DNA of 64,000 nt from an uncultured Gammaproteobacteria bacterium (lineage in GTDB: Bacteria; Pseudomonadota; Gammaproteobacteria; UBA9214), in NCBI GenBank assembly GCA_963748215.1, contig CAVVHS010000006.1, positions 832,001-896,000 of the forward strand, written 5' to 3'. Below are positions 4,291 to 58,400 of this stretch, piece by piece; position 1 is the first letter of the stretch, and every line of letters begins with the position of its first letter. Below the pieces are notes generated by a model. It was not told the DNA's origin. It saw only the letters and a list, made by a program, of their open reading frames with translations, and searched no databases. The translations under genes and the position numbers were made by a program.

Positions 4291-4609
4291 CCCTGCCCCT
4301 TTCAACAGCAACTCTCGTAAAGTTTCATGAAGGATGTATTAACGAAGTCTAAAGTTCAACAACGTATACAGGAAAAAGACGGCCAGTAACATGGAATTAC
4401 ACTCAGCAAATTCGGATTAATAGATTTGTACTATTTTTGGCTTTAAACGAAGAAAAGTCGGTATAGGTTGGAACCCTTGTATCTGACTATCCAGGATTTG
4501 TCGATCCCAGACAGCCAAGAATAGGAATTCAAGAGAGTGGTCGTCTATGGGACTGTTGAGACTTCATGGGGTAAGGGGCCCATTAGCGCCCCTGTAACAT
4601 ATTGATATT

Positions 4610-4725
4610 TGGCGCGCCCGAAGAGATTACTCGGGGCTGCGCCCCTCGCCCCTGCGGAGCGCCGGCAGAGCCGGCGTTCTTCGCCGCTGCGCGGCTTGTC
4701 GAACGCCCGACCGCCTGGTTCGTAG
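4610..4725 (-). repeat. tRNA-Arg(ACG) 3'-half att-like site 1, split by a 71-bp hairpin insertion (4629-4699)
   Basis: TGGCGCGCCCGAAGAGATT|insert|CGAACGCCCGACCGCCTGGTTCGTAG; IHF consensus TATCAATATGTTA at 4595-4607 (- strand). Confidence 0.85.
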
Positions 4726-4845
4726 TTATCGCCAGGGGGCGTAACCATTTGTATTTTAAGCAACTCAGGCGTGGTCGCCCGTTGCATTCTGTACTACCAC
4801 GCACCACTGCGCTGGACTGATCCCGGCAAAAGTCCGGCAGGGTAT

Positions 4846-5852
4846 GGGTATAGGAAGCATAACCCACGTATCTCGCGAGAATCCACCCGGGAACCGGCCG
4901 CAGCCCACCTTGCCCGCCTCCCTCCCGGGCCGGCAGCCTGGCCATGTGAATCCATGAATACCTGCTTGCGCCTCGTCACACCCATCCGTCCGGCAGCGCA
5001 CGCGGTGCCGGTAGCCGCAAACCCTCACGGACCGGCGCCGCTTGCTCCAGATGCGCCAGAATCTTGCCGATCACCGCCGGGTCCTCGATGCTGGCGATGA
5101 TCTTCACCGCACCGCCGCAGGCCTGACAGGTCTCAACATCGACAAGGTGAATGATGCGCAGCATCAAGAGAGGGTGCCCTGGGGCATCCGGAATACGCGC
5201 TTGAAGCCCTGTGCCCAGGTCATCGCAGACCGGCGGGCCGCCGGCGTGTCCTCCTCTACCTCATCCGATGCCTTGCGGTTGGCACCCCGGCCCCGACCCG
5301 CCTTCGTGACCCAGGCCCGGTGTGGACTGTTCGGTGCGAACACCCCGTGGTAGCGGGTCAGATTCACCCGTGGCCGCGGCACCAGCGCCGCCAGGCGGGC
5401 CATGAAATCCAGCGGCTCGACAAAATCGCCGGGAGCGATTTTGAACAGCCGAAGGCTGGCCCGAAGGGCGGAGGGCAGGATGCCCGGAGTAACATGACGT
5501 GCGTGGTGCCGTCCCGGTAAGGCGTCTTGAGCTGGTAGCGCACAGTTCCCGAAGGCGTCAGTGACAGGCGCGGTTCGGCAATCGCCGGCCGGGTTACATA
5601 GCGGCACAAACGCTCCAGCTTCTGCCGCTCGCCGCGGGCGGTGGCCACCCCGGCATACAGCGAGAAACCGGCCACTTTCGCTACCCGGGCACTGGACTCT
5701 TCCAGGCTGCCCGCCGCCGGCAGGCTCTGCAGGCAGAAGGCCTTGCGCCCCTGCTGTGGCCCCACGGCAATACGGTAGGTAATCGAACTGCCCAGCACAC
5801 CTTCCAGGCCGGTCTCGCCCGCCGGCTCCAGCGCAAGATAACTGGAATTTTC
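4846..5852 (-). mobile_element. IS91/ISCR-family element, 5'-truncated transposase pseudogene with oriIS
   Basis: oriIS-type end ...ATGCTTCCTATACCC at 4846; LERLCRYVTRPA, EPLDFMARLAALVPRPRVNLTRYHGVFAPNS and CQACGG motifs; two small internal insertions. Confidence 0.88.
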
Positions 5853-7789: not shown

Positions 7790-9056
7790 TTCAGTTTGAG
7801 TCAAGCTACGACGGCCGACTCTTACCGTTACTGATAACAAGCCTGTTCTTTCTTTGCCGGCGGGACGTCGCAGATCGGCTCCAGCAGCCGGCGGTGATTG
7901 AACCAGTCCACCCATTTCAGAGTAGCGTACTCGACCCCATCGATGTTGCGCCAAGCCCCCCACCGGCGGATATCCCCGGTTTTGAACAGGCTGATAATTG
8001 TCTCTACCTGGGCACTATCATACAAATCGCCGACACTGCGGACCGACGACTCGACACCGGCTCCGGCGAAGTGCTCGGTATAGTGGATCGACAGATAGTG
8101 AGCACCCCGGTCGCTGTGATGCACCATGCCCCCCGTCCATGTCCTTGACCACAGCGCCTGTTCAAGTGCATCCAGCACCAGGTCCGTACACATTGAACTC
8201 GCCACCCCCTAACCGACAATGCGACGGGCGAAGACATCGATGACGAAGACTACGCCCACCCAGGTGGCAACGTAGGCAAAGTCCGCCACCCACAACGAGT
8301 TGGGATACGTCGCCGTGATCCACCGCTGCACGAGATCAGCCGGTCGATCGGCCGCATTGTCGGCTTGTATCGTCCGCCATGCCTTACCATGTACCGCGCC
8401 ATGCAGACACAACTTGCTTATCAGGCACTCCACCGTGCAGGAGGTCACCGGTATCTATTCACGGCTCAACAGCCGCCAGACCTCAGGCACCGTAGACCTA
8501 GAAGTTATCAGCCCATACGCGCCGAATCTCGGGCTTAAGCGTCATATCGGGCTGTGCACGCGGTGGCAGCCGTTCAGGATTGGACTCGCGGTGATTGCAC
8601 TCGTAATACGTCGAGGAGGCAATCGGCAACTACGCGCAAATCAACTTGACCCCATACTCGGATCAGTGCACATCGATAAACGACTTCATCACATCAGTCG
8701 CCGACCGAGATCCGCCCGGGCGAAAAAGCCGACGCCTTCGCAGATTCTCGTTGGCACGATTCAGCTCACTGTTCTCCCGCTCCAGCGCCTCGAGCCGCTC
8801 GCGATCAGACGTGGTCAGACCTTCACGCTTCCCTGATCCCGCCCGGCTTACCGCACCCTAATACGCAACGTCTCGGCCGTGCAACCCGCTTATCCGGCAA
8901 TCGAGTTCAACGCCGCTTACTGCGAGTCGTATTCAGCCCGGTGCCCGAAAACCAGCCATACCGCCAGTTCCCGTACTTACGACGAATAACTTGCTGACTT
9001 GCTCACGACTCCATCCTTTCAAGAAATTAAGCCTCCGGTAAAGCCGGGGCGATTCA
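7790..9056 (-). mobile_element. Degenerate IS3-family element (IS51-group-like)
   Basis: End TGAATCGCCCCGG at 9056; fragments WVADFAYV, HHSDRG and WVDWFNHRRLL with stops and frameshifts. Confidence 0.8.
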
Positions 9057-12436: not shown

Positions 12437-13235
12437 GGGTATAGGAAGCATAACCCACGTATCTCGCGAGAATCCACCCGGGAACCGGCCGTCTCACCGG
12501 CATCCCTGCCCCTGAATCCCCGCACCCCGGCCGCCTGCAGGCCGCTCCCGGCCCTCTGCCACCGGCTTCCGCTGGCCTCTTCCTTTTTGTAACAGCCATG
12601 GCCCGGCCCACCGGCCGCAGCCCACCTTGCCCGCCTCCCTCCCGGGCCGGCAGCCTGGCCATGTGAATCCATGAATACCTGCTTGCGCCTCGTCACACCC
12701 ATCCGTCCGGCAGCGCACGCGGTGCCGGTAGCCGCAAACCCTCACGGACCGGCGCCGCTTGCTCCAGATGCGCCAGAATCTTGCCGATCACCGCCGGGTC
12801 CTCGATGCTGGCGATGATCTTCACCGCACCGCCGCAGGCCTGACAGGTCTCAACATCGACAAGGTGAATGATGCGCAGCATCAAGAGAGGGTGCCCTGGG
12901 GCATCCGGAATACGCGCTTGAAGCCCTGTGCCCAGGTCATCGCAGACCGGCGGGCCGCCGGCGTGTCCTCCTCTACCTCATCCGATGCCTTGCGGTTGGC
13001 ACCCCGGCCCCGACCCGCCTTCGTGACCCAGGCCCGGTGTGGACTGTTCGGTGCGAACACCCCGTGGTAGCGGGTCAGATTCACCCGTGGCCGCGGCACC
13101 AGCGCCGCCAGGCGGGCCATGAAATCCAGCGGTTCGAAAATGACGTGCGTGGTGCCGTCCCGGTAAGGCGTCTTGAGCTGGTAGCGCACAGTTCCCGAAG
13201 GCGTCAGCGACAGGCGCGGTTCGGCAATCGCCGGG
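12437..13235 (-). mobile_element. Second IS91/ISCR-family copy (oriIS plus 3' part of transposase)
   Basis: Near-identical to 4846-5590; lacks the 71-bp insertion and has about 124 bp extra near oriIS. Confidence 0.88.
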
Positions 13236-13511
13236 CCGCCGGGGTTCATTGAAAGGTAAAACACCGAAATTGTTTCTGGAACAACGTTACCAGCATGCGA
13301 TTGGTGAGCTGGATGAATCGAGGAAATATCAGCGCCAGTTTGAAGCCTATTACCATCGCAAGTGAAAAAAGGAACCCGGATGGTGGCAACAGAATAATTC
13401 AGCCAAGCCAGGCCTACAGTGTTGGCTTGTGGAGTAAGATATATCCGTCAGATAACTAATGCGTGTTTTATAAAGCAAGTTGAGGCAACAATCCTGCATT
13501 CCGCACGTTCT

Positions 13512-15968: not shown

Positions 15969-16212
15969 TGGCGCGCCCGAAGAGATTACTCGGCCAAATT
16001 CTACTCGGGGCATTACTGACCCTCGCGCCCTGCGGGCCGCCGCCGCTGCGCGGCGACGTTCTCGGCACTTGCTCCCTGCATTACTCTCGGCTCTGGCATC
16101 CTGCTTCGCTCTACCGAGTCCATCCATGGACTCGTACCTCCTGAATGGCCCAGGCCAGCTGCTCGACCCGGACTATGCCCGTAATATGGCTAACCTTTCC
16201 CTGCAGTCGTGC
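15969..16212 (-). repeat. tRNA-Arg att-like site 2 with expanded nested hairpin insertion; right side replaced by a MITE fragment
   Basis: TGGCGCGCCCGAAGAGATT-ACTCGG...; upstream TGGACA arm-like repeats at 15905-15935. Confidence 0.8.
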
Positions 16213-26836: not shown

Positions 26837-27100
26837 GTGCCCGGGGAGATTACTCGGCCAAATTCTGCTCGGGGCATTACTGACCCTCGCGCCCTACGGG
26901 CCGCCGCCGCTGCGCGGCGACGTTCTCGGCAATTGCTCCCTGCATCGCCCAAGGGCGCCTACTTTTGGTGCCCCACCTCCTGCATGGCCCAGGCCAGCTT
27001 ATCGACCCGGGCTATACCCGTAATAATGGCTCACCTTCTCCCTGCAGTCGTGCGCCGCCTTCGGCGGCTTGTCGAACTCCCGACCGCCTGGTTCGCAGCC
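26837..27100 (-). repeat. tRNA-Arg att-like site 3 with nested hairpin insertion
   Basis: GCCCGGGGAGATT-ACTC...TTGT-CGAACTCCCGACCGCCTGGTTCGCAGCC. Confidence 0.82.
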
Positions 27101-42053: not shown

Positions 42054-42303
42054 TGGCGCGCCCGGAGAGATTACTCGGCCAAATTCTACTCGGGGCACTA
42101 CTGCCCCTCGCGCCCGTGCGGGGCCGCCGGCAAAGCCGGCGTTCTCGGCAATTGCTCCCTGCATTGCTCTACCTCGTGCATGGCCCAGGCCAGCCTCTCG
42201 ACCGGTTTCCGGTCTCACCTACTCCCTGCAGTCGTGCGCCGCTGCGCGGCTCGTCGAACTCGACCAATTAGAAACGTCGGGAGTTCGAATGCCTGGTTCG
42301 TAG
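42054..42303 (-). repeat. tRNA-Arg att-like site 5 with nested insertion and partial repeat tail
   Basis: TGGCGCGCCCGGAGAGATT-ACTC...TCGT-CGAACTC...GCCTGGTTCGTAG. Confidence 0.82.
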
Positions 42304-43301: not shown

Positions 43302-44033
43302 GTGCGCGCACTACTTCTCCTGGCGGCAATTGCCGGGCTCTATCTCGCGTTTCGCTGGTTCCTGACACAACCACGGAGAACCCAGCTTCAGGCGACTGCA
43401 GTGGCCGTCGGCCTCGCGCTGATAGGTTTGGCGGCAACCGGGCGCCTGAACTGGGTGTTCGCAATCTTCGGTGCCCTGCTGCCATTCGTGCGCCGTTTGC
43501 TGCCACTGGCGTCCTACCTGCCGACCTTTCAGCGGGTCTACAGACACTTCAAGAGCGCACGATCCACAGCAGGACAGTCTGCTGGCCAGCAGTCAAAAGT
43601 TGAAACCCGCTTTGTCAGCATGACCCTAGATCACGACACGGGTGAGATGAACGGTAGCGTTCTTGAAGGCCGGTTCGCCGGCAAGGATTTAAAGGCGCTT
43701 TCACTCGACCAACTGGTTGAACTGCTGGCCGAGTGCGTACACGAAGACGAAGAATCGGCAGCACTCTTGCGCGCTTATTTGGACCGGGTGCATGGTGACG
43801 AATGGCAAAAGCGGGAGCAGTCCGAAGCAGGTAATAAGGCCACGGGATTTTCAGCCGAAATGACACGTCACGAGGCCTATGAGATTCTGGGTCTCGATGT
43901 AGGGGCCAGCGAGGAACAGATCATAGAGGCGCACCGGAGACTCATGCAGAAAATCCATCCAGACCGCGGCGGTTCCACCTTCCTGGCATCCAAGATTAAT
44001 CAAGCCAAGCGCCTGCTGCTTGGCAATGGGTAA
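43302..44033 (+). CDS. Membrane protein with C-terminal DnaJ domain
   Basis: AYEILGL...AHRRLMQKIHPDRGGS. Confidence 0.9.
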   Translation: MRALLLLAAIAGLYLAFRWFLTQPRRTQLQATAVAVGLALIGLAATGRLNWVFAIFGALLPFVRRLLPLASYLPTFQRVYRHFKSARSTAGQSAGQQSKVETRFVSMTLDHDTGEMNGSVLEGRFAGKDLKALSLDQLVELLAECVHEDEESAALLRAYLDRVHGDEWQKREQSEAGNKATGFSAEMTRHEAYEILGLDVGASEEQIIEAHRRLMQKIHPDRGGSTFLASKINQAKRLLLGNG

Positions 44034-44149
44034 TCGCGGAACCGGAAGTGAATACGTCCCCGCAGGGTCAAAATACACATCCCACTCGCTCGGCTAGTGT
44101 AGGTCGTCAAACAGTTTGTAACTTATAAACACAGGGAATATAGCTGTTG

Positions 44150-44592
44150 CGTGACGTCCAAAATCGCTCCCGGCGATTTTGTCGAACTGTGGAGCCCGAC
44201 TCAGCCCTCGCACAAGCCAAACACAAAACCGGCCTGGAGGCCGGTTTTGTGTTTGGCTTGCCCGGAGAGATTACTCGGCCAAATTCTACTCGGGGCATTA
44301 CTGCCCCTCGCGCCCCTGCGGGGCCGCCGGCAAAGCCGGCGTTCTCGGCAATTGCTCCCTGCATTGCTCTACCTCCTGCATGGCCCAGGCCAGCCTCTCG
44401 ACCGGTTTCCGGTCTCACCTCCTCCCTGCAGTCGTGCGCCGCTGCGCGGCTCGTCGAACTCAACTGAATAGATACGTCGGGAGTTCGAATACCTGCCAGT
44501 ACTTCAAACACACAGAAGCCCGCGCAAGGCGGGCTTCTGTGTGTTTGGCGCGCCCGGAGAGATTCGAACTCCCGACCGCCTGGTTCGCAGCC
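44150..44592 (-). repeat. Tandem tRNA-linked repeat units ending in an uninterrupted tRNA-Arg 3' half (44546-44592); site 6
   Basis: Interrupted copy at 44254, intact copy at 44546, terminator-like hairpins at 44216-44257 and 44506-44545. Confidence 0.85.
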
Positions 44593-44813
44593 CTAAATCA
44601 AGGGCTATATCATATTATACAGTCACTTGCGGCGTTTGCCCCTCTCATGCCGCAGTTGACTTATCAATCACTTACGGTTGAGCGTACTTTCAAGTTAGCA
44701 CAAATCTGGCACACTCCACGCAGCAGAATTCCGGTTATTCTCTCCAGAAATTGTATAGACGTCCAATATACAATAATGTATATTGATCATCTATACAACT
44801 GGAGACTATTCCG

Positions 44814-45092
44814 ATGACTGAAACACAGAACCGTGCAGCACCGATTAATATCCGCGCCCGCCCAACTCAGCGTAACCTGATCGACAAGGCCGCTGCGATG
44901 CTCAACAAGAATCGCTCGGACTTCATGCTGGAAGCGGCCTGCCGTGAGGCCGAGAACGTCTTGCTCGACCAGCGCCTTTTCCTGGTCGACGACAAGGCCT
45001 GGCAGGCATTCGAGACACTCATTGATGCGCCGGTCAAAGACAACCCCGCGCTGCGCAAACTGTTACATGACAAGGCCCCATGGGAGAAGTAA
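44814..45092 (+). CDS. DUF1778 RHH antitoxin (TacA/AtaR-like)
   Basis: INIR....R.LID.AA....NRSDFMLEAA; palindrome TTGTATA-N9-TATACAA at 44751-44773. Confidence 0.9.
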   Translation: MTETQNRAAPINIRARPTQRNLIDKAAAMLNKNRSDFMLEAACREAENVLLDQRLFLVDDKAWQAFETLIDAPVKDNPALRKLLHDKAPWEK

Positions 45093-45574
45093 CGGCGCCG
45101 GAGCCGATTACAGCGACTCACCTCATTGAGTCGTTCTCATGCGGTGTCCCGGTGCTGGATGACTGGCTTAAACGCCGCGCGCTCAAGAACGAAGTTTCCG
45201 GCGCATCCCGCACCTTCGTCATTTGCCAGGATTCGCAGGTCATCGGTTATTACACGCTGGCCACTGGCAGTATCGAACATCGCAATACACCAGGGAAAAT
45301 ACGCCGCAACATGCCGAATCCGATACCGGTGATGGTGATCGGAAGACTTGCCGTCGATCAGCGGTGGCAGCAGGCAGGCCTGGGTCGCGGCCTGCTGAAA
45401 GATGCCCTGTTGCGCACCCTGTCGGTTTCGAAACAGGCAGGCATCCGGGCATTACTGGTGCATACTCTCTCGGAAGATGCAAAGCACTTCTACACCCGTA
45501 GCGGGTTTATCGAATCTCCGCTTGATCCAATGACCTTGATTATTGCACTGCAGGATGCTGCACATTGCCTGTAG
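45080..45574 (+). CDS. GNAT acetyltransferase toxin (TacT/AtaT-like)
   Basis: FSCG..LDDWLKRRA, GRLAVD..WQQAGLGRGLL. Confidence 0.9.
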   Translation: MGEVTAPEPITATHLIESFSCGVPVLDDWLKRRALKNEVSGASRTFVICQDSQVIGYYTLATGSIEHRNTPGKIRRNMPNPIPVMVIGRLAVDQRWQQAGLGRGLLKDALLRTLSVSKQAGIRALLVHTLSEDAKHFYTRSGFIESPLDPMTLIIALQDAAHCL

Positions 45575-45809
45575 CGGCGCGCACGGATAAGACCGTGGAA
45601 ACCGGTCGAACAATGTGGAACGCTATGCTGCGACAAGCTGTGATACGGGTAAAGCCCAACTATTTCGCATTACCCGAAGTCGAATGTGAACATTACCAGC
45701 TGCAGTTGAATGCAGATGATAAAGTCAATACTACAGAGGAGCAGGCCGCGGTACTGGACAGATTTGAGGATAGTCTGTATCTGTTATTGAATAGCATGCT
45801 TTTGCCCTT

Positions 45810-46193
45810 ATGGCATTGACCAAGGAACAATCTTTACGCGAGGCAATCACCCGCGAAGAAGCTCAACTCGCTGAGATTGCACACAGACAGGATGAGAGCC
45901 GAAAACGGTTGGCAGCACCTAAGGAAGAGCTTGCCACCGTGGAATCACCGCATGTAGCTCCTTTCGCCTCTGCAATACACCCTGGCGCCGACGTACCAAC
46001 CACCGCCGAAGGAAAAATCTCATTATTCCGTCAACTATTCCGCGGCCGGGATGATGTATTTCCATTGCTCTGGGTAAGTACAAAGACCGGTCGGAAAGGG
46101 TATTCACCAGCCTGCAGCAATGAATGGGTACGTGGCGTCTGCGAAAAACCCCGTGTGAAAGAGAGCATTTGTCTATTTAAACCGATATTTTAG
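45810..46193 (+). pseudogene. N-terminal fragment of an AEP-primase/helicase (TOTE-type) protein
   Basis: KISLFRQLFRGRDDVF..W...TGRKGYSPACSNEW..GVCEKP, truncated afterwards. Confidence 0.6.
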
Positions 46194-46254
46194 AATCAGA
46201 GTTAAATCTGAATGTCTCCTTTGTACGAATATGCTCACTTTTAGAGATTAACTG

Positions 46255-46390
46255 CCAATGTCTTCGATTACATCGAAATGTTCTACAATCGTACCCGTCG
46301 GCACAGCCATCTTGGCGGGGTCAGTCCGGAGGCATTTGAAAGTGCCTCAAAATGAGGCTGGGAAGTGTCTACTGTATCGGGGGTAGTCCA
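46255..46390 (+). pseudogene. IS3-family 3' remnant
   Basis: [23 protein letters not shown]; end ...GGGGTAGTCCA. Confidence 0.75.
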
Positions 46391-46753
46391 TTACGCAATA
46401 AGACACTCGTAGGGGATCTTCAAACCTTCATGCAATTTCCGGATCATTGTTAGCGTCAAACTTCGCTTTTTACTCAGCACCTCAGACACACGCCCACTTG
46501 TTCCGATATACGGCTCCAGATCTTTGCGCGACAAGCTGTTCTGCTCCATCAAGAACTTGATCGCTTCTATTGGGTCCGAGGCAGGAATTGCATAGTGCTC
46601 ATCTTCATATTTCTCAACGATCAGCATCAAGACATCCAGCTCATCGCCTCTTGGTGTATTGGGTTTTGCACCCCACAGCTCATCGATACGCTTTAACGCA
46701 CGGTTCAGCTCACGGTCATTTTTAACAGGCTTCAGTTTCATAATAAACCTCAA
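46391..46753 (-). CDS. higA: HigA antitoxin (HTH)
   Basis: DPIEAIKFLMEQ...RVSEVLSKKRSLTLTMIRKLH. Confidence 0.9.
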   Translation of the reverse strand: MRFIMKLKPVKNDRELNRALKRIDELWGAKPNTPRGDELDVLMLIVEKYEDEHYAIPASDPIEAIKFLMEQNSLSRKDLEPYIGTSGRVSEVLSKKRSLTLTMIRKLHEGLKIPYECLIA

Positions 46754-47061
46754 ATATGTTCAATATCCTCGATCTCGTCATATTCCTTATGGGTCCCCAC
46801 AAATCGAATAAGCATTCCATGCCGAACATAATCCATAAGCACAACAATTCTGTATTTGTTACCGCATAGGTTAAATACAACACGGTTGTTCTTTAAGATG
46901 CTCGCATTACGCAAGTCAGCCTTTAATTTGTGTGGCGTATTCCATTTTGCAGTTGCACAGTAGTTGTACCACTCCGTCATTTGCTTCTTTGCATCTCTGT
47001 ATTTCGGGCTACTCTCCCAAAATTTCCGCAGCATGGACTTTGCGATCACCCTCATCAACAT
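46750..47061 (-). CDS. higB: HigB toxin
   Basis: RVVFNLCGNKYR, IRFVGTHKEYD. Confidence 0.9.
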   Translation of the reverse strand: MLMRVIAKSMLRKFWESSPKYRDAKKQMTEWYNYCATAKWNTPHKLKADLRNASILKNNRVVFNLCGNKYRIVVLMDYVRHGMLIRFVGTHKEYDEIEDIEHI

Positions 47062-47070
47062 ACCCTATCA

Positions 47071-47112
47071 TGCTCCCATCATGGGAGCAATCAGAAATAT
47101 CCCAATATGGGA
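47071..47112. promoter_or_regulatory. Putative HigA operator palindromes
   Basis: TGCTCCCAT-C-ATGGGAGCA (47071-47089) and TCCCA-ATA-TGGGA (47100-47112). Confidence 0.65.
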
Positions 47113-47433
47113 GGTTTTTACTTCAGACCGGTGACGTCATGCAACAATGGGAACAGGGAAACCACGACTGTATCAGTACCTGAAGCGGGTTTTCACCACA
47201 CTGCCAGCTGAATCTCCACCCAGACGTGCTAACTTCAGCAACTCATTTTCCGGATCACATTGACGCCGATTTTTTGGAACCCTGTCAGTCACTTGATCAC
47301 GGATGCCGTATACACAGGGAAGGTATGCAATGACAGCACCTGTCCAATTAAATGGATGTTTTTAGCTCTATTGGACAGTCACAAAAAAACCGGCCTAGCA
47401 GAACGCTATAATCAGTTGATTTAAATAGTAAAA

Positions 47434-47610
47434 TGGCGCGCCCGGAGAGATTACTCGGGGTTTTGCCCCTCGCCCCTGCGGGGCCGCCGGCAAAGCCGGC
47501 GTTCTGCGCTCCCTGCGGTCGCTGGTCGAACTCAACTGAATAGATACGTCGGGAGTTCGAACCTCTGATGTACCGATAAACCAAAAGACCCGCGCAAGGC
47601 GGGTCTTTTG
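47434..47610 (-). repeat. tRNA-linked repeat unit / att-like site 7
   Basis: One mismatch versus the unit at 52160; IHF consensus AATCAACTGATTA at 47409-47421 (- strand). Confidence 0.88.
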
Positions 47611-47737
47611 TGTAGTACCTGAGAGATAGCATACAGACTATACCGGAGACATGGTTTACACATAAGGGCATTGGGGGGGATCCCGGATGCCATGGAAAGA
47701 GTGTAAACCGATGGATGAACGCCTAAAGTTTGTAGCC
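47611..47737 (+). mobile_element. IS481-family left-end fragment
   Basis: TGT terminus; MPWKECKPMDERLKFVA. Confidence 0.8.
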
Positions 47738-47961
47738 CCAATCAACGGGATATATTACTCTAACTTACAGTCACTTACGGCGCCTGCCCATCCAATGCCG
47801 CAGTTGACTTATCAATCAGTTACAGCTCACTGTGCATTCGAGTTAGCACAAATCTGGCACACTCCACGTAGTGTAATTCCGGTTATTCTCTCCAGAAATT
47901 GTATAGACCATCGATATACAGTGATGTATATTGATTATCTATACAACAGGAGACTACCCCA

Positions 47962-48240
47962 ATGGCTGAAACACAGAACCGCGCGGCACCGATTAATATC
48001 CGTGCCCGCGCGACGCAGCGCAACCTGATTGATAAGGCCGCTGCGATACTCAACAAGAATCGCTCGGACTTCATGCTGGAAGCGGCCTGCCGTGAGGCCG
48101 AGAACGTCTTGCTCGACCAGCGCCTCTTCCTGGTCGACGACAAGGCTCGGCAGGCATTCGAGGCACTCATCGACGCGCCGGTCAAAGACAACCCCGCGCT
48201 GCGCAAACTGTTACATGACAAGGCGCCATGGGAGAAGTAA
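47962..48240 (+). CDS. DUF1778 antitoxin, second copy
   Basis: Close paralogue of 44814-45092. Confidence 0.9.
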   Translation: MAETQNRAAPINIRARATQRNLIDKAAAILNKNRSDFMLEAACREAENVLLDQRLFLVDDKARQAFEALIDAPVKDNPALRKLLHDKAPWEK

Positions 48241-48722
48241 CGGCGCCGGAGCCAATTACCGAGACTCACCTCACTGAATCATTCTCGTGCGGCATCCCGG
48301 TGCTGGATGAATGGCTCAAACGCCGCGCACTCAAGAATGAAGTTTCCGGCGCATCCCGCACCTTCGTCATTTGCCAGGATTCGCAGGTCATCGGTTATTA
48401 CACGCTGGCCACTGGAAGTATCGAACATCGCAATGCTCCAGGAAAAATACACCGCAACATGCCGAATCCGATACCGGTGATGGTGCTCGGAAGACTCGCC
48501 GTCGATCAGCGGTGGCAGCAGGCAGGACTGGGGCGGGGTCTGCTGAAAGATGCCCTGTTACGCACCCTGTCGGTGTCGAAACAGGCAGGCATTCGGGCGT
48601 TACTGGTGCATACGCTCTCGGAAGATGCAAAGCGCTTCTACACCCGTAGCGGGTTTATCGAATCTCCACTTGACCCCATGACCTTGGTGATTGCGTTGCA
48701 GGATGCTGCACATTGCCTGTAG
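48228..48722 (+). CDS. GNAT toxin, second copy
   Basis: Close paralogue of 45080-45574. Confidence 0.9.
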   Translation: MGEVTAPEPITETHLTESFSCGIPVLDEWLKRRALKNEVSGASRTFVICQDSQVIGYYTLATGSIEHRNAPGKIHRNMPNPIPVMVLGRLAVDQRWQQAGLGRGLLKDALLRTLSVSKQAGIRALLVHTLSEDAKRFYTRSGFIESPLDPMTLVIALQDAAHCL

Positions 48723-48878
48723 CGGCGCACATGGATAAGACCGTGGAAACCTGTCGAATAATGTGGAACGCTATGCTGCGACAAGCTGTGATACGGGTAA
48801 AGCCCTACTATTTTGCATTACCTGTGCATGGCGAATTACGAGTTTGTACCATGAAAGAGGCGGGCCTTCTTGTTTATA

Positions 48879-48989
48879 TCGCGCGCCCGGAGAGATTACT
48901 CGGCCAAATTCTTCTCGGGGCATTACTGCCCCTCGCACCCTGCGGGCCGCCGCCTTCGGTGGCTTGTCGAACTCAGCTGAATAGATACG
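48879..48989 (-). repeat. Truncated tRNA-linked repeat / att-like site 8
   Basis: GCGCGCCCGGAGAGATT-ACTC...TTGT-CGAACTCAGCTGAATAGATACG. Confidence 0.8.
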
Positions 48990-49099
48990 AGAATAAGGTG
49001 ACGGAGGCGTTTTATTCCTTCACGCATGAAAAGAAATAGTGTCAGAGCACATTTTCTCATTATATTCGCGGAAAATGTGCTCTGACACCAATTAGCAGA

Positions 49100-49663
49100 T
49101 CAGAAATCGTAACGTCCGCTGATGTATGGCCCGTCCAGCTCCTGGTCGGAGGCAGCGCCTACCGCCAGGGACATCTGCGGCGCTGGATAGAAGCGTACAC
49201 CGGCCTTGATACCCAGCTCGTCGTCATCCCAGAAGTCGTTGGAGATGTACGAGATGTCACCTTCCAGGTGCAGGTTCTGCTGCAGCGCATAGCGGAGGCC
49301 GCCGCGCAGCAGCACGCCGGTGTCGTCATTGTTGCCGAACCCGAAGTCCGCATCGGCATTGATCAGCTGCACGCTGCCGACAAAATCCAACTGGTTGTTT
49401 AGCGGGGTGTGAAACTGCACACCGATGGTGAAGATGTCCAGATCGCCGTCTGCTAATGGACCGCGGTCGAAATCCATCGCGTAATAGGAACCGATAATGC
49501 CGAAGCCCTGGTTAAGATCGACGGCACCACCGATGAACAGGCCGTCGCCATCGCCCCGACCCTCGCCATAGCCGATTTCCACGTAGGTGTATCTGAAATC
49601 CCCGGCCATGGCCGGTGCGGTTGCCAGCAGTATCGCGCCGGCCAGAAGTGCCTTCTTGTTCAT
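49100..49663 (-). CDS. Small outer-membrane beta-barrel protein
   Basis: Signal peptide (AMA), alternating beta strands, terminal RYDF. Confidence 0.88.
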   Translation of the reverse strand: MNKKALLAGAILLATAPAMAGDFRYTYVEIGYGEGRGDGDGLFIGGAVDLNQGFGIIGSYYAMDFDRGPLADGDLDIFTIGVQFHTPLNNQLDFVGSVQLINADADFGFGNNDDTGVLLRGGLRYALQQNLHLEGDISYISNDFWDDDELGIKAGVRFYPAPQMSLAVGAASDQELDGPYISGRYDF

Positions 49664-50036
49664 GTGCGTCCCTCTACGAATGGTCTGAAATGCGCGGTTT
49701 GATTAGTGTACCTTAAACCAGCAGCCGCGTCGTTTGCGAACAGGTGTGCAAAGAATAAACACTTTTATGCAAGAATAAAGGGGACGGAGGAGTTATTTTC
49801 CAACTAATGGTGTCAGCACATTTTCTCCTTGATCGCGAAAAACCGACTCAAAGGGGACGGAGGATATAAAGTGGGGATTACTAAAGGGGACGGATGAGTT
49901 TTATTCATTCTGGGATTTCGCTTGAGAATATAACTCCTCCGTCCCCTATTACTCAATCCGCAGTTCGAGTAAAAAACCGAACAAGCCAGCTGTCATTGCA
50001 AAATTCTGAACACAGGCGATTCAATAGAGATTTGTA

Positions 50037-50744
50037 ATGGACAAACAAGCCCCACAATTCAATCCGGTATTGTTGTGGTTACGTTTTGTCATTCGCATGA
50101 GTTTATTTGCTCTCGCCCTGATGTGGCCGGCAGGCACCTGGCACTGGCGGGAAGCCTGGGTGGTGGTAGGACTGTGGTCACTCTTTGGCCTGGTCATGCA
50201 ACATTATCTGATGCACAACGACCCCGCCTTGTTAGCAGAGCGATTAAAGCTGGTTCCGATACACAAGGATCAGAAGACTTGGGACAAGGCACTCATGGCT
50301 ATATTTTTTATAGCAGGGATTTCACTTTATATCGTTCCCGGTTTTGATGTCGTGCGTTATGGCTGGAGTGAGCCATTACCCTTGTGGTTGAAGATAGTGG
50401 CCTTCACCATACACATTCCCTGTTTTATCGGTTTGGGATGGGTGATGCGTGAAAATACGTATCTGGCACAGGTTGTAAAAATTGACGAACAACGAGGTCA
50501 TCAGGTGATTACGACAGGTCCTTATGCATTGGTACGGCATCCAATGTATGCCATCGTTATCATTTTACTGTTCGCAGTGCCCGTAGCACTTGGATCACGC
50601 TATGCCCTGATCCTCTCCGTATTTTTAACACTATTATTGATTATACGAACATATCTTGAAGATCGGACTTTGCATGATGAACTTGATGGGTATGCAGCGT
50701 ATGCCAAACAAACCCCTTACAGGCTGATTCCTGGAATATGGTAA
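50037..50744 (+). CDS. Isoprenylcysteine carboxyl methyltransferase family membrane protein
   Basis: VITTGPYALVRHPMY, RTYLEDRTL..EL.GY..Y. Confidence 0.9.
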   Translation: MDKQAPQFNPVLLWLRFVIRMSLFALALMWPAGTWHWREAWVVVGLWSLFGLVMQHYLMHNDPALLAERLKLVPIHKDQKTWDKALMAIFFIAGISLYIVPGFDVVRYGWSEPLPLWLKIVAFTIHIPCFIGLGWVMRENTYLAQVVKIDEQRGHQVITTGPYALVRHPMYAIVIILLFAVPVALGSRYALILSVFLTLLLIIRTYLEDRTLHDELDGYAAYAKQTPYRLIPGIW

Positions 50745-50791
50745 ACCAATCAATGGGGTCAGACTCGATTGATTACAGAAGGCAGACTGCC

Positions 50792-51433
50792 ATGAAGAGA
50801 ACTTACTCGACGGCCAGGCACCCTCCCCTGCGTACCCTGCCAGGACTGGCTGTCATGGCACTCGTCGTGCTGCCGTTGCTCGCCTCCTGCGACGCCGTCT
50901 GCAAGGCTGTCTGCGAAACATCCCAACCCGCCGGGGAAATCGGCCAACCCAGGGATATCGGCTATGCCGTTCTGAAAAAGCTGCTCGACGACGAGCAGCA
51001 TGTCAAGACGCTCCGCATCGTCAAGTCCATCATCACCTTAAGCAAGGCCAGTGATCCGACAGCCGAGCTGATCGATGACATCGCCACGGTTTCCGCCCGG
51101 GGACTGGACGACCTGGAGACGCTGGTCGCACTCAGGCCCGCAATCAACCTGGACACGTCCAGCCAGGAGCAGCTCGGCAGCGACATTTTTAACGCATTGC
51201 GCGTGGCTACCGCCAGGGAACTGATCACCGCGACGGGTGACGACTTCGAACTCAGCCTCGTGCTCAGCCAGATCCAGGCGCTGCGCCTGATCGGCCAGTT
51301 ACTCAAGGAAATCCAGGAACTGGACCCGAACCCGAAGCGACAGGCCTGGCTTGCGCATCTGGCCAGTGACTACGAAACTCTTTACAGTCGTGCCGTTGCA
51401 CGCCTGTCAATCAATGGGGCCAGACTCGATTGA
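50792..51433 (+). CDS. Hypothetical helical lipoprotein
   Basis: Hydrophobic segment and LASC lipobox; start (MKRTYS) uncertain. Confidence 0.6.
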   Translation: MKRTYSTARHPPLRTLPGLAVMALVVLPLLASCDAVCKAVCETSQPAGEIGQPRDIGYAVLKKLLDDEQHVKTLRIVKSIITLSKASDPTAELIDDIATVSARGLDDLETLVALRPAINLDTSSQEQLGSDIFNALRVATARELITATGDDFELSLVLSQIQALRLIGQLLKEIQELDPNPKRQAWLAHLASDYETLYSRAVARLSINGARLD

Positions 51434-51464
51434 TCTGACAACCTTGACCGGAATAAAGGGGACG

Positions 51465-51645
51465 GCGTATAGGAAGCATAACCCACGTATTTCGCGAGAA
51501 TCCACCCGGGAACCGGCCTTCTCACCGGCATCCCTGCCCCTGAATCCCCGCACTCCAGCCGCCTGCAGGCCGCTCCCGGCCCTCTGCCACCGGCTTCCGC
51601 TGGCCTCCTCCTTTTTGTAACAGACATGGCCCGGCCCACCCACCG
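51465..51645 (-). mobile_element. Orphan IS91/ISCR oriIS fragment (third copy)
   Basis: Homologous to 12437-12614; no transposase sequence. Confidence 0.82.
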
Positions 51646-51804
51646 GGTATTCAGGGGACGGTTACTAATTTCCACTCAATGCCCCGAACATTTACCTGTC
51701 TCGACTGAGTGCTTGTAAACGGACATCTGTTGCCGCATGGAAAATATTCCTCTGCGCCCGTAAAACTCAGATAAATAGGTATACTGTCCCCTGACTCTTC
51801 GCCG

Positions 51805-52388
51805 CCATCGCGGCTCGTCGAACGCAACCGATTAGATAAGTCGGGAGTTCGAATACCATTCCAGACCTCAAACAAACAAAAGCCCGCACAAGGCGGGGCT
51901 CGGTTGTTTTGTGCGCGACCAGAACGAGCGTAGCGAGTTCAGGAAGTACTTGATGAAACGCCGCAGGCGGTTCTGAAGTACCCGGAGAGATTACTCGGGG
52001 CTGCGCCCCTCGCCCTGCGGGCCGCCGCCGCTGCGCGTCGACGTTCTGCGCTCCCTGCGGTCGCTGGTCGAACTCAACTGAATAGACACGTCGGGAGTTC
52101 GAACCTCTGGTAAACCGATAAACCAAAAGACCCGCGCAAGGCGGGTCTTTTGGTTTATATGGCGCGCCCGGAGAGATTACTCGGGGCTTTGCCCCTCGCC
52201 CCTGCGGGGCCGCCGGCAAAGCCGGCGTTCTGCGCTCCCTGCGGTCGCTGGTCGAACTCAACTGAATAGATACGTCGGGAGTTCGAACCTCTGATGTACC
52301 GATAAACCAAAAGACCCGCGCAAGGCGGGTCTTTTGGTTTATATGGCGCGCCCGGAGAGATTCGAACTCCCGACCGCCTGGTTCGTAG
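51805..52388 (-). repeat. About three tandem 184-186 bp tRNA-linked repeats ending in an intact tRNA-Arg(ACG) 3' half (52344-52388); site 9
   Basis: Reverse strand reads CTACGAACCAGGCGGTCGGGAGTTCGAATCTCTCCGGGCGCGCCA; period 52160 to 52344. Confidence 0.9.
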
Positions 52389-52515
52389 TTAGCAAGTGAA
52401 TCGCTAACTTTTTGTTTCTTAAAGTAGATTACTGGAATGCCCGTTGCCCATTTTGCCTAACAAAGCAGGACGATGCATAACTGAATCCCGCAAAAGTCCC
52501 GCAAGCCATTTCATG

Positions 52516-55030
52516 CCCGTCTGGTCAAAATATTCATGCGGCCTCCCGATGGTAATACTTCAGCAGCCCACCTAACCGTTCCTTACAAACGACCGATCCG
52601 TTACCACGATTCATTGCCTTCGTAGTCCTGGAAATAACAGTACGTTGTCTTTACCTTGATGATTTCGCTCAGCATGATAATGGACCAGATACTCTCGCAG
52701 GGCACGTCTTAAGGATGTTTCGCCAAACAGAATTAACTTCGATAAACAGTCGTCCTTGACCGATTTCACCCAGCGTTCAGAAAACGCATTCAGATTCGGA
52801 CTACGCGCAGGAAGCTGGAACGTTTTGACATCGCCGGATTCGATGATGTCCCGAAATGACTCACAGTACTTGGTATCACGGTCATGGATGAGATAGCTGC
52901 AACTTTCAAGAAAACCCCCTCCATCCATGGTCACATTCCGGGCGATTTGTTTCATCCACTGCTCGTTCGGATGTGGCGTGATGCCGACTACCTCGACTTT
53001 GCGACTCTCAAGCTGGATAAAGAATAGTACGTAATAAGTGACCAACTCGGAATCCGCGCAGCGTCAGTACCTCCACGCAGAAAAAGTCGGTCCCCGCAAG
53101 AGACAGAGCATAGAGGTGGACCCCGGTAGCCGGACAGGGGTGAGGAAAGTTTAAGTGTCTTCTGCGAAGATAATTGGGATAGAGACAGGAGCAGAAGATG
53201 AAGAGGAAACGTCGTAATCATTCAGCGAGCTTCAAGGCGAAGGTAGCGGTCGCTGCCATCCGGGGAGACAAGACGCTGGCGGAATTATCCGAGCAGTTTG
53301 ATGTACATCAGAACCAGATTCAGGACTGGCGGCGGAAGTTGCTGGACCAGGCGGATCAGGTCTTTGGGCGTGGAGGTGGTTCGCCGTCCGAGTCGGAACA
53401 CAAGGTCAAGGAGCTGCATGCCAAGATTGGTCAGCTGACGATGGAACGGGATTTTTTAGAACAAGGGCTGGAAAGGATTTCACGGCCGAGAGGCAAAAAA
53501 TGATTGATTGGACGCATTCGTTGCCTGTGACCCGCCAGTGTCGTTGCTCATTCTCAATCGATCCTCGGTGTATTACCAACCGACCGGTGTTTCTGATGAG
53601 GATTTGAGGCTGATGCGGCTCATCGATGAGATCCATCTCAAGCGCCCGTTCTACGGCAGCCGCCGGATTCGGGTAATCTGCAGGATTACTGGGACACCCG
53701 GTCAATCGCAAGAAGGTGCAACGCCTGATGCAGCTGATGGGGATTTCTGCCCTCTATCCGAAGGCTAATACCAGTCGGCCGGGTAAGGGGCACAGGATCT
53801 TATTCCGTACCTGCTGAAAGGCTTGAATATAGACAGACCGAACCAGGTCTGGGCGACTGACATCAGCTATATCCCCATGGCCAGGGGCTTCGTGTATGTC
53901 GTGGCCATCATGGACTCGTACAGCCGCAAGGTCTTGGCTTGGCGGGTATCCAACAGCATGGATGCGGACTTCTGCGTGGATGCCCTGGAAGAGGCTATCA
54001 GTCGCTATGGAGCACCTGATATCTTCAACACCGATCAGGGGGCCCAGTTTACCAGTGAGGCCTTCACCGACGTTCTCAAGTCGGCAGGTATCCGGATCAG
54101 CATGGACGGCAAGGGTCGTTGGGTGGACAATGTGTTTGTGGAACGGCTGTGGCGCAGCCTGAAATACGAAGAGGTGTACCTCAAGGCATACGAAACGGTA
54201 GCCGAGGCCCGACTGGGTATTGGCAACTACTTCCAGTTCTACAATTGTGAACGCAGGCACGACAGCCTGGACCGGCAGACGCCGGATCAGGTCTATGAAG
54301 GGAGTGTAATGTGGCCGGTCGCAGCATGATCAGGCCGCAGGATGTGTGGGGAGAATACACTTAAACGGCTGTCCAAAAATCGGGGTCCATTTCTCATGTG
54401 TGCGCGGATGAAGTCCGCCCAGGTTGTGTACGCCGGCGCTCGGCGCTGGCAGGATGTCATGGCGTTGCAGAATATTGCCAACCGTTTGATCGGATAGCGT
54501 GTAGCCGAGATTCGCCATGGCGCCCACAATGCGGTCATAGCCCCAATCTGAATTCTCTTTGGCCATGCGCACTACCAGTTGCTCGGTTTCGTGATCAATT
54601 CTGGGTCGGCCGGGATATTGGCGTGACTGGGAACCATCGAATTTGCTGGCTATCAGCTTTCGATACCAGCCAGGATAGTGTTCGGGCTTTGGCATTGGCC
54701 ACATCCTCAAGGGCTTTACGGCCAAGACGATGGGCGATTTCTGCAAGTGTGATCCTCTCCCCGTCAGTGAGTCGAAGCGGCGTCTTGAGTTGAGCTTTGA
54801 GGATCCGGTTTTCGGCAGCAAGATACTCATTACGCAAAAGGAGTTCCTGGTTCACTGTCCCAGTGATGTAAGCCAGCATGCGTGCCCAATCCATAATTAT
54901 CCCCACGAGCGATTAGCATTAGCCGATAGATTGTAGGCTTAATGTGAGGGAATTTTCAAAAGCACTGTAACCAGTACGCCATATGTTAAGATGCTGATAT
55001 ATCAACAAGGATGACTTTTTTGACCACACG
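52516..55030 (-). mobile_element. Degenerate copy of the integrase-core IS at 57174-58400, interrupted by IS3
   Basis: Same TIRs and protein fragments, with frameshifts. Confidence 0.85.
53111..54396 (+). mobile_element. IS3-family element with frameshifted orfB
   Basis: TIR with TGGACCCCG core; orfA 53198-53503; WATDISY, NTDQGAQF. Confidence 0.88.
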
Positions 55031-57173: not shown

Positions 57174-58400
57174 CCCGTCTGGTCAAAATATTCATGCGGC
57201 CTCCCGATGGTAATACTTCAGCAGCCCACCTAACCGTTCCTTACAAACGACCGATCCGTTACCACGATTCATTGCCTTCGTAGTAGCTGGAAATAACAGT
57301 ACGTTGTCTTTACCTTGATGATTTCGCTCAGCATGATAATGGACCAGATACTCTCGCAGGGCACGTCTTAAGGATGTTTCGCCAAACAGAATTAACTTCG
57401 ATAAACAGTCGTCCTTGACCGATTTCACCCAGCGTTCAGAAAACGCATTCAGATTCGGACTACGCGCAGGAAGTGGCAACGTTTTGACATCGCCGGATTC
57501 GATGATGTCCCGAAATGACTCACAGTACTTGGTATCACGGTCATGGATGAGATAGCTGCAACTTTCAAGAAAACCCCACTCATCCATGGTCACATTCCGG
57601 GCGATTTGTTTCATCCACTGCTCGTTCGGATGTGGCGTGATGCCGACTATCTCGACTTTGCGACTCTCAAGCTGGATAAAGAATAGCACGTAATAAGTGA
57701 CCAATCCGCGCAGCGTCAGTACCTCCACTGAGAAAAAGTCGGTCCCCGCAAGAACAGACATGTGTGCGCGTATGAAGTCCGCCCAGGTTGTAGTACGCTG
57801 GCGCTCCGGCGCTGGCAGGATGTCATGGCGTTGCAGAATATTGCCAACCGTTTGATCGGATAGCGTGTAGCCGAGATTCGCCATGGCGCCCACAATGCGG
57901 TCATAGCCCCAATCTGAATTCTCTTTGGCCATGCGCACTACCAGTTGCTCGGTTTCGTGATCAATTCTGGGTCGGCCGGGATATTGGCGTGACTGGGAAC
58001 CATCGAATTTGCGGGCTATCAGCTTTCGATACCAGCCCAGGATAGTGTCGGGCTTTGCGGCATTGGCCACATCCTCAAGGGCTTTACGGCCAAGACGATG
58101 GGCGATTTCTGCAAGTGTAATCCTCTCCCCGTCAGTGAGTCGCAGCGGCGTCTTGAGTTGAGCTTTGAGGATCCGGTTTTCGGCAGCAAGATACTCATTA
58201 CGCAAAAGGAGTTCCTGGTTCACTGTCCCAGTGATGTAAGCCAGCATGCGTGCCCAATCCATAATTATCCCCACGAGCGATTAGCATTAGCCGATAGATT
58301 GTAGGCTTAATGTGAGGGAATTTTCAAAAGCACTGTAACCAGTACGCCATATGTTAAGATGTTGATATATCAACACGGATGAGTTTTTTGACCACACGGG
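57174..58400 (-). mobile_element. Integrase-core (IS481-like) IS with intact 360-aa transposase (57192-58274)
   Basis: TIR CCCGT(C/G)TGGTCAAAA; TDFF, LIHDRDTKY, NAFSERWV. Confidence 0.88.

Follow-up and report, generated by a model that had tools for sequence, protein, structure and literature searches.

Cores of tRNA-linked repeats as discrete cassettes at G^AA sites in an uncultured gammaproteobacterium

Two 71-bp inserts and their empty counterparts

The DNA analysed here is a stretch of 64,000 nt (the window) of contig CAVVHS010000006.1 from an uncultured gammaproteobacterium of the UBA9214 lineage. C-numbers denote the contigs of this genome (G000), and the window belongs to C6. It carries tRNA gene fragments, remnants of a transposase gene and short hairpin-rich elements, among them two inserts of 71 bp which are the subject of this work. 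The first insert (4629-4699) is located between TT and CGA (plus strand) of a 47-nt tRNA 3' fragment, referred to as site 1; read in the sense of the tRNA (minus strand), it separates TTCG from AATC of the T-loop. The second insert (5420-5490) is in the opposite orientation to site 1 and is located between TT and CGA (minus strand) of a Y2_Tnp remnant, to which it is antisense. The ends of the two inserts match. A target duplication is absent at both, and the junction can be shifted by one base (A).

Empty counterparts of both sites exist in the window. The tRNA fragment is found in uninterrupted form at 44546-44590 and 52344-52390, and the second copy of the Y2 remnant is uninterrupted at 13136/13137. 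Outside the insert, the two copies of the remnant are 99.6% (532 nt) and 97% (102 nt) identical and differ at four positions (5416, 5493, 5562 and 5589) and by one terminal indel. The remnant is a truncated Y2_Tnp gene (IS91 family, PF04986) covering profile positions 86-183 of 183, and since the uninterrupted copy matches this profile in one piece, the empty form is the ancestral one. In four public runs, contigs (over 4400-5800) which join 5420 to 5494 via AA resemble the paralogous empty copy at 13136, and the other joints are short-sided. The right end of the Y2 insert (24 nt) recurs at 44159-44182 with 100% identity; this truncated copy is its nearest relative in the genome and has a T-loop-type 5' flank. 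Thus the inserts with their shared ends, the lack of duplication, the empty sites and the recurring right end, all described in a first-pass annotation of the window, could be read directly from the DNA. The protein-coding gene which it named as the second host is indeed transposase sequence, in the form of a truncated remnant and not of an intact gene.

A whole-genome ARAGORN analysis identifies the tRNA fragment as the 3' end of tRNA-Arg(ACG), to which it is identical at 45 of 45 nt. The gene itself is located on another contig (C5:2666-2742). Assignment of the window fragments to tRNA-Pro(GGG) was ruled out, the tRNA-Pro(GGG) gene of the window having a different T-loop.

Relation to tRNA-linked repeats

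Judged by sequence and predicted fold, the inserts of 71 bp are copies of the four-hairpin core of the tRNA-linked repeats (TLRs; RtT RF00391 and AaHKsRNA22 RF02902) and not a new family. Site 1 itself does not reach the Rfam cut-offs, with 28.8 bits for RF00391 (gathering score 45) and 31.1 bits for RF02902 (39.8), and the insert at 5420-5490 has no Rfam match at E <= 10. Window copies at 44275, 47425 and 52170 exceed the RF02902 cut-off with 40.1-41.5 bits. In the whole genome RF00391 gives 25 matches, seven of them above the cut-off (45.9-61.2 bits), and RF02902 gives 15 matches, three of them above it.

A regular expression for ACTC...GTCGA produced 374 mostly random matches in the genome, and covariance models were used instead. 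Model R1 was built from 16 cores, all of this genome, while R2 was built without the Y2 (IS91-type) insert or its close kin. R2 detects the Y2 insert in full length at 5420-5489 (30.5 bits, E = 5.9e-6 over 74.5 kb); site 1, which was in the training set, scores 47.1 bits. With R1, 48 places were found in this genome at E <= 0.01 and ten in the window at E <= 0.001, and cores are present in 23 of the 24 congeners and in five of the 16 other families of the class which were searched. At E <= 0.1, R1 also has 16 matches in E. coli K-12. Among these, the tyrT locus was checked, and on our reading the lysT-valT and rrnA/B/D loci are included as well; the remaining places, according to their map positions, presumably belong to the proK, valU and argQ-serV tRNA operons. 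In the rttR unit of K-12, GGTTCG and AATCC flank the four-hairpin core, and the final 19 nt of tRNA-Tyr come after it. Over its entire length, the Y2 insert can be aligned to the rrnB core of E. coli (L061:1501-1573), which lies between the T1 and T2 terminators. Thus the likeness to the tyrT (RtT) repeats suggested in the first-pass annotation holds, and the element is no novel family but part of the TLR/RtT/RrB family. According to PMC8144298, TLRs have been described since 1978, K-12 has 22 of them at ten loci, the last 18-19 bp of each are the same as in the tRNA or rRNA gene upstream, and their function and origin have no accepted account.

The two inserts differ in what they share with complete TLR units. 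The site 1 core lies between TTCG and AAT of a T-arm copy and is followed by 19 nt of the tRNA-Arg(ACG) 3' end with one mismatch, outside the operon of its tRNA. The Y2 insert has no counterpart of this 3' end repeat (best tRNA match with four mismatches in 16). Its core, with a CGGGA loop in the first hairpin and GGA loops, is of the RrB type known from 5S-linked TLRs; its flanks are Y2_Tnp coding sequence instead of a 5S gene with its repeated 3' end and two terminators. Both inserts lack an inverted T-arm 5' arm of the GGATGAGAAC type, which is present in the canonical units of this genome and of E. coli; in the window units the inverted T-arm is unmodified. On their 5' side, canonical RtT units carry the conserved motif GGATGAGAAC, which corresponds to the T-arm of the tRNA itself in reverse complement, with GAG in place of TCG (E. 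coli loci L019, 1160-1200, minus, and L057, about 1575-1610, minus; in this genome C8:224986-225010). A canonical RtT unit can therefore be described as an inverted duplication able to form a 12-bp acceptor/T minihelix ending in NCCA. The unit with the core at 52179-52252, for example, contains the inverted T-arm copy, a short T-stem, the core, a 19-nt tRNA-Arg end and a terminator. The element does not resemble classical, DDE-mobilised miniature inverted-repeat transposable elements, since its ends are not mutual inverted repeats and a duplication is absent.

Fold, strand and covariation

Four hairpins (P1-P4) are formed on the sense strand in all 17 cores folded, so the folding claimed in the first-pass annotation is right and its count of three hairpins is not. 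The motif C-GA...GA-G frames P1 and P4; on the sense strand it gives tandem G.A pairs, where the complement would have T.C mismatches. When folded as DNA, site 1 has a z-score of about -2 and the Y2 insert one of -4.9 to -5.8.

For covariation, 59 distinct copies from six genomes were aligned to R1. Since the MAFFT alignments A1 and A3 misalign P1, only P2-P4 were tested and covariation in P1 is not counted. Of the cells expected to pair, 95.7% do so (81.9% in shuffles), and changes on both sides of a pair were seen in 84 cells compared to 21.7 +/- 3.6 in shuffles (0 of 500 as high) and to at most 14 in slid controls; as the copies are related and were aligned by fitting to the model, these figures lean towards structure. 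P3 is invariant across the 59 copies, and one P2 pair is U:G in 27 of them. The model building and genome scan proposed as a check thus yielded 48 places and strong covariation in P2 and P4, with the tRNA-sense strand as the folded one. Conservation of structure rather than sequence, as initially claimed, applies to P2 and P4.

Insertion at G^AA

Read in the sense direction, almost all copies are preceded by G and followed by AA (the caret in G^AA marks the junction). Five contexts were found. T-loops with GGTTCG^AATCC are occupied in copies of at least ten tRNA types, and D-loops with GAGTGG-Y-Y-G^AA in Ser/Leu-type tRNA copies of this genome and of four other species searched. The E. coli rrnB core is placed at G^AA in a partial copy of the 3' end of the upstream gene, the 5S context. 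In the Y2 remnant the site is GGTTCG^AAAA, and in a repeat of about 600 bp it is AAAG^AAAAG within a 14-bp hairpin stem. Five copies of this repeat are filled and five are empty (Table 1), with one exact junction. Thus the core forms a discrete cassette which has been set exactly at G^AA with no duplication of the target, and at least two of its hosts, the Y2 remnant at 5420-5490 and the 600-bp repeat, are unrelated to stable RNA. Filled and empty pairs outside tRNA fragments, which had been named as a check, were found in the Y2 remnant, in the 600-bp repeat and in the D-loops of tRNA copies.

The 600-bp repeat is non-coding and has at least ten copies, and the core in its filled half is of the RrB type. 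The two copies tested (L050 and L051) contain neither an Rfam family nor a tRNA. One copy lies about 1.6 kb from the only integrase-like gene which is not of the Xer type (C2:97718).

The distance between the copies and the genes whose ends they repeat varies strongly. About 12 of the 48 genome copies are located 51-522 nt behind that gene, and about 25 bear the end of a gene which lies on another contig or at a distance of kilobases; D-loops or non-tRNA DNA harbour the remaining copies. The distant copies comprise a tRNA-Lys array on C9, the tRNA-Arg units of the window, and tRNA-Pro(GGG) units more than 800 kb from their gene. In C9:317927-408760 and in the window at 4600-52400, units of a tRNA 3' fragment and a core follow each other at kilobase spacing in a single orientation; the C9 array carries tRNA-Lys(UUU) ends at 7-98 kb from the gene, and the window array tRNA-Arg(ACG) ends. 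Further, a near-complete tRNA-Gln copy with an insert adjoins the intact tRNA-Gln gene, and four species of the genus have conserved a pseudo-tRNA of the Leu/Ser type with one core in the D-loop and another in the T-loop (L026, L025, L035 and L038 in G003, G015, G024 and G019, respectively). The diverged core sequences of this conserved pseudo-tRNA hint at selection for the RNA.

Features of the window

Table 1. Coordinates of cores, their hosts and their empty counterparts (window positions unless a contig is given)
Feature	Coordinates	Strand	Remarks
Final 19 nt of tRNA-Arg(ACG), 3' of site 1 core	4610..4628	-	One mismatch to gene
Site 1 core, 71 nt, four hairpins, TLR/RtT type	4629..4699	- (structured strand = tRNA sense)	RF00391 and RF02902 scores both under cut-off
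tRNA-Arg(ACG) piece, anticodon loop to TTCG of T-loop, 5' of site 1 core	4700..4727	-	
Y2_Tnp (IS91-family) remnant copy 1, split by core	4893..5591	-	Substitutions 5416 and 5493 beside insert
Core of RrB (5S-linked TLR) subtype, 71 nt, in Y2_Tnp remnant	5420..5490	+	Antisense to remnant
Y2_Tnp remnant copy 2	12610..13238	-	Empty site 13136/13137
Composite TLR core	16003..16085	-	Nested element upstream; tRNA-Arg(ACG) 3' end terminal
Composite TLR core	26867..26947	-	Nested element upstream
Composite TLR core	42088..42168	-	Of the same kind as that at 44288
P1-only truncated copy	44159..44182	-	24/24 identical to P1 of 5420-5490; GTTCG 5' flank
Composite TLR core, 3' two thirds	44288..44368	-	Second small element between P1 and P2, about 44370-44440
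tRNA-Arg(ACG) 3' fragment	44546..44590	-	Empty T-loop site 44564/44565; then terminator and TLR units on sense strand
TLR core	47453..47526	-	RF02902 41.5 bits, over cut-off
TLR core, tandem neighbour of 52179 unit	51993..52068	-	
TLR core in canonical unit	52179..52252	-	RF02902 40.5 bits, over cut-off
tRNA-Arg(ACG) 3' fragment	52344..52390	-	Empty site 52362/52363; then terminator and two TLR units
600-bp repeat, filled	C2:31843-32436, C5:41396-41988, C3:662-883, C2:6585-7089, C6:1038762-1039284		
600-bp repeat, empty	C2:99883-100102, C5:221265-221771, C9:280887-281403, C4:98162-98644, C6:985669-986191		

The composite cores contain a second small structured element of roughly 57-100 nt with a hairpin of its own, which is nested between P1 and P2 and in one case in the P4 loop instead. 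In the window it was found at about 16090-16180, 26950-27040, 42170-42250 and 44370-44440, and elsewhere in the genome at C6:898800-898860, C2:153021-153159 and C5:191117-191228. It has no Rfam match at E <= 1 in the region 44000-52600. Two other features were noted in the window. An ALIL pseudoknot, the frameshift signal of IS3-family elements (RF01497, 53.3 bits), is located at 8615-8731 on the minus strand, and an open reading frame for an HTH_32/rve_3 transposase (57192-58274) adjoins tRNA-Pro(GGG).

How the cores may have spread

The explanation which we prefer is that the TLR core is copied as a free cassette to G^AA. We give it a probability of roughly 0.6, a figure which covers no particular enzyme. 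Since the core forms a clean insertion in a transposase remnant, it can be copied on its own. Moreover, a neighbouring TLR from which the arrangement could result by deletion is missing at the Y2 remnant, the D-loops and the 600-bp repeat, and thus the core arrived at these places as a cassette. Site 1 can be obtained by deletion, so that this site alone is no proof of insertion. Of the independent mobility claimed initially, the discrete cassette with its filled and empty sites stands, while a route of copying does not follow from these data.

A possible course of events is the following. The canonical units sit behind a tRNA gene and are transcribed along with it. The inverted T-arm copy would pair with the direct copy of the last 19 nt to give a stem similar to a tRNA minihelix, from which the core would branch at the position of the T-loop. 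Copying would take place at the DNA level, from a single strand folded into hairpins, and would be directed to GG..G^AA. This could be achieved by a nuclease or transposase acting in trans or, alternatively, by template switching at short homologies from a TLR donor, and we prefer the enzyme only slightly. The absence of duplication, the strand-specific fold and the bias for the G-rich strand fit a process involving single strands; the folded strand is on the G-rich strand in 39 of 48 copies and in 16 of 20 neighbourhoods, a bias which is confounded by the orientation of the tRNA genes.

It is tempting to speculate further, with less than even odds in our estimate, that TLR cores are living non-autonomous single-strand hairpin elements which home to GG..G^AA in T- and D-loops without duplication and which are mobilised in trans by an unrecognised enzyme. 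The TLRs of E. coli, including that in the rrnB T1-T2 spacer, could then be fixed products of such elements, and the split-tRNA arrays at kilobase spacing described here could be their footprints and not scars left by integrases.

The alternative which survives best, although we consider it unlikely, does without dedicated mobility. In this case the copies would have been shaped by ordinary recombination, with unequal crossing-over and deletions between short repeats involving tRNA genes, tRNA fragments and TLR units, with gene conversion of T-arms and with rare template switches in replication at GGTTCG/AA, and the Y2 insert would be one accident. TLRs track tRNA types which share a T-loop sequence: they accompany eight of the 13 types with T-loop GTTCGAAT and two of the 30 others (Fisher p = 3e-4). 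This dependence on sequence counts for both explanations.

Several observations weigh against copying as a free cassette or speak for this alternative. Site 1 could be the product of a deletion between 7-nt GAGTTCG repeats of an empty fragment and a downstream TLR, in a layout as at 52179-52390. The Y2 target has 8 nt (GGTTCGAA) in common with the T-loop, in line with templated copying. Two of the four substitutions between the Y2 copies (5416 and 5493) are located at most 4 nt from the insert (P about 5e-4 for two of three internal ones), which is unlike clean cut-and-paste and expected from templated copying with donor flanks. Hairpin modules are mosaic, P2 of the core at 51993 being like that of C3 and C8 copies, and this fits recombination. 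A single event may account for all five filled copies of the 600-bp repeat. The tyrT-type core is present in 4726 of 5426 E. coli genomes, and recent movement was not seen among the matches listed. Finally, no association with a transposase and no mobiliser was found: the Y1 transposase genes of this genome are flanked by other repeats and not by cores, and across 41 genomes three congeners have cores (7, 10 and 1) without a Y1 match and six genomes have Y1 without cores.

On the other hand, the alternative without dedicated mobility has difficulties with the sites themselves. The D-loop targets have only 3+2 nt in common with the T-loop flanks and the target in the 600-bp repeat only G^AA, and the junctions are exact nonetheless. 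One and the same point is used across five unrelated contexts, 5S included. Further, 42 copies at E <= 1e-4 in this genome, compared to 0-17 in the 24 congeners, resemble a burst.

In the version of the first-pass annotation, the element is a hairpin mini-element which is mobilised by an HUH enzyme (IS91 Y2, or Y1 of IS200 or of the REP-associated tyrosine transposases, RAYTs; REP, repetitive extragenic palindrome) and which may lock or inactivate the attachment (att) sites of genomic islands. We consider this improbable. The absence of duplication, the hairpin-rich ends and the strand-specific fold would suit it, and a G-rich-strand bias is expected from IS200/IS605-type insertion into the lagging-strand template, with the confounding by tRNA orientation mentioned above. 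Many copies are in dispersed tRNA 3' fragments of the sort which islands leave, and two RAYT-like genes are located about 1.1-1.2 kb from two C9 units. However, neither the adjacency of Y1 genes nor their co-occurrence with cores in the 41 genomes supports the link. The genome has five to six RAYT-like Y1_Tnp genes (NF047646 69-70 bits, below the cut-off of 80), among them those at C3:109441 and C9:316317, and Y2 is represented by no more than three gene fragments, each of them in the window. IS91 inserts 5' of GTTC/CTTG, a rule which misfits the D-loop and 600-bp-repeat sites, and IS608 uses a fixed 4-5-nt target 5' of the insert; here, the only constant bases 5' of the insert are G (sense) or TT (antisense).

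Other short repeats accompany some of the Y1 genes. One RAYT-like gene has a 33-bp repeat upstream (C3:109280-109312) which occurs at about 18 other places, mostly on C3, and two identical Y1 genes on C9 are flanked by another short repeat. These two repeats may be the true REP partners of the respective Y1 genes.

The att part of this version has no support either. Five matches to the tyrosine recombinase profile PF00589 were found in the genome, one with an internal stop and two of them fragments, and two of the five we take to be of the Xer type. None is located in the window or on C9, and the resolvase profile PF00239 has no match in the genome. Direct repeats of tRNA 3' ends do bound kilobase-sized segments, and no integrase stands beside the tRNA fragments of the window. 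With neither integrase nor resolvase in the window or the C9 array, there is nothing to lock. Moreover, the TLRs of E. coli are not att sites.

Last, an RNA-level element, either an intron-like insert spliced from tRNA transcripts or RNA copied back by a reverse transcriptase, is very improbable: the folded strand is always tRNA-sense, U:G pairs are present, and E. coli and Actinobacillus produce and process TLR RNAs according to PMC8144298 and PMC4986893, but the hosts here are fragments or decayed pseudogenes with nothing to rescue, 71 nt is well under the size of self-splicing introns, and the Y2 insert is antisense to its host gene.

Significance

In the papers that could be searched, no description of the core as an insertion cassette was found. 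Three points are new in comparison to them: a core which stands on its own in non-RNA DNA, sites in D-loops, and the G^AA junction in common with the 5S-linked copies of E. coli. Of particular interest is that a gene with no relation to stable RNA provides a clean pair of filled and empty sites. Together with the D-loop inserts and the common G^AA, this pair turns a "tRNA-end repeat" into a "cassette at a defined site", a claim which can be tested at the bench. For genome annotation, two cautions result: split tRNA ends which bear cores need not be att sites of islands, and a core of 71 bp is able to disrupt a gene unnoticed.

Comparison with known systems

REP and REPIN elements with RAYTs, as well as the hairpin mini-elements derived from IS200/IS605, are likewise short, GC-rich, strand-specific hairpins inserted without duplication, and a short motif stands beside the hairpins (CGAG here, GTAG in REPs). 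In contrast to REP/RAYT systems, a cognate Y1 gene flanked by cores and co-occurrence of the two are missing here, only G or TT is constant 5' of the insert, and the targets are tRNA loops and not intergenic space.

The small RNA (sRNA) 22 of Aggregatibacter (RF02902) has the same P2-P3-P4 core in the alignment of the window copies. RtT-family RNAs beside tRNA genes are expressed in Actinobacillus, as stated in PMC4986893.

The rtT/RttR units of the E. coli tyrT-tyrV operon (RF00391) have the same four-hairpin core and linkers as the copies described here, with the same TTCG/AATCC position in the T-arm copy. They are also alike in the 19-nt copy of the tRNA 3' end, in the inverted T-arm as 5' arm and in the tandem arrays behind tRNA genes. 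Unlike them, site 1 scores under the cut-off, lacks the half with the inverted arm and sits in a genuine tRNA-Arg fragment of 47 nt, remote from the corresponding gene. Among the matches listed for the tyrT-type core in the E. coli collection, every place carries an RtT sRNA annotation; 18 places are on plasmids, and 700 of the 5426 complete genomes have no match at E <= 1e-3. The number of copies also differs, with about 48 in this genome, many of them dispersed at kilobase spacing, in comparison to the 22 reported for K-12 in PMC8144298.

Closest to the Y2 insert are the 5S-linked TLRs of E. coli (rrA, rrB and rrF). It matches the rrnB core in the CGGGA loop of P1, with compensatory changes in the P1 stem, and in the GGA loop of P4, and both cores are placed at G^AA. 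In contrast to the 5S-linked TLRs, it stands alone and antisense in a transposase remnant, without 5S or tRNA flank or terminators. The RrB sRNA, which is encoded between rrnB T1 and T2, binds Hfq and CsrA in vitro through its GGA loops, as also reported in PMC8144298.

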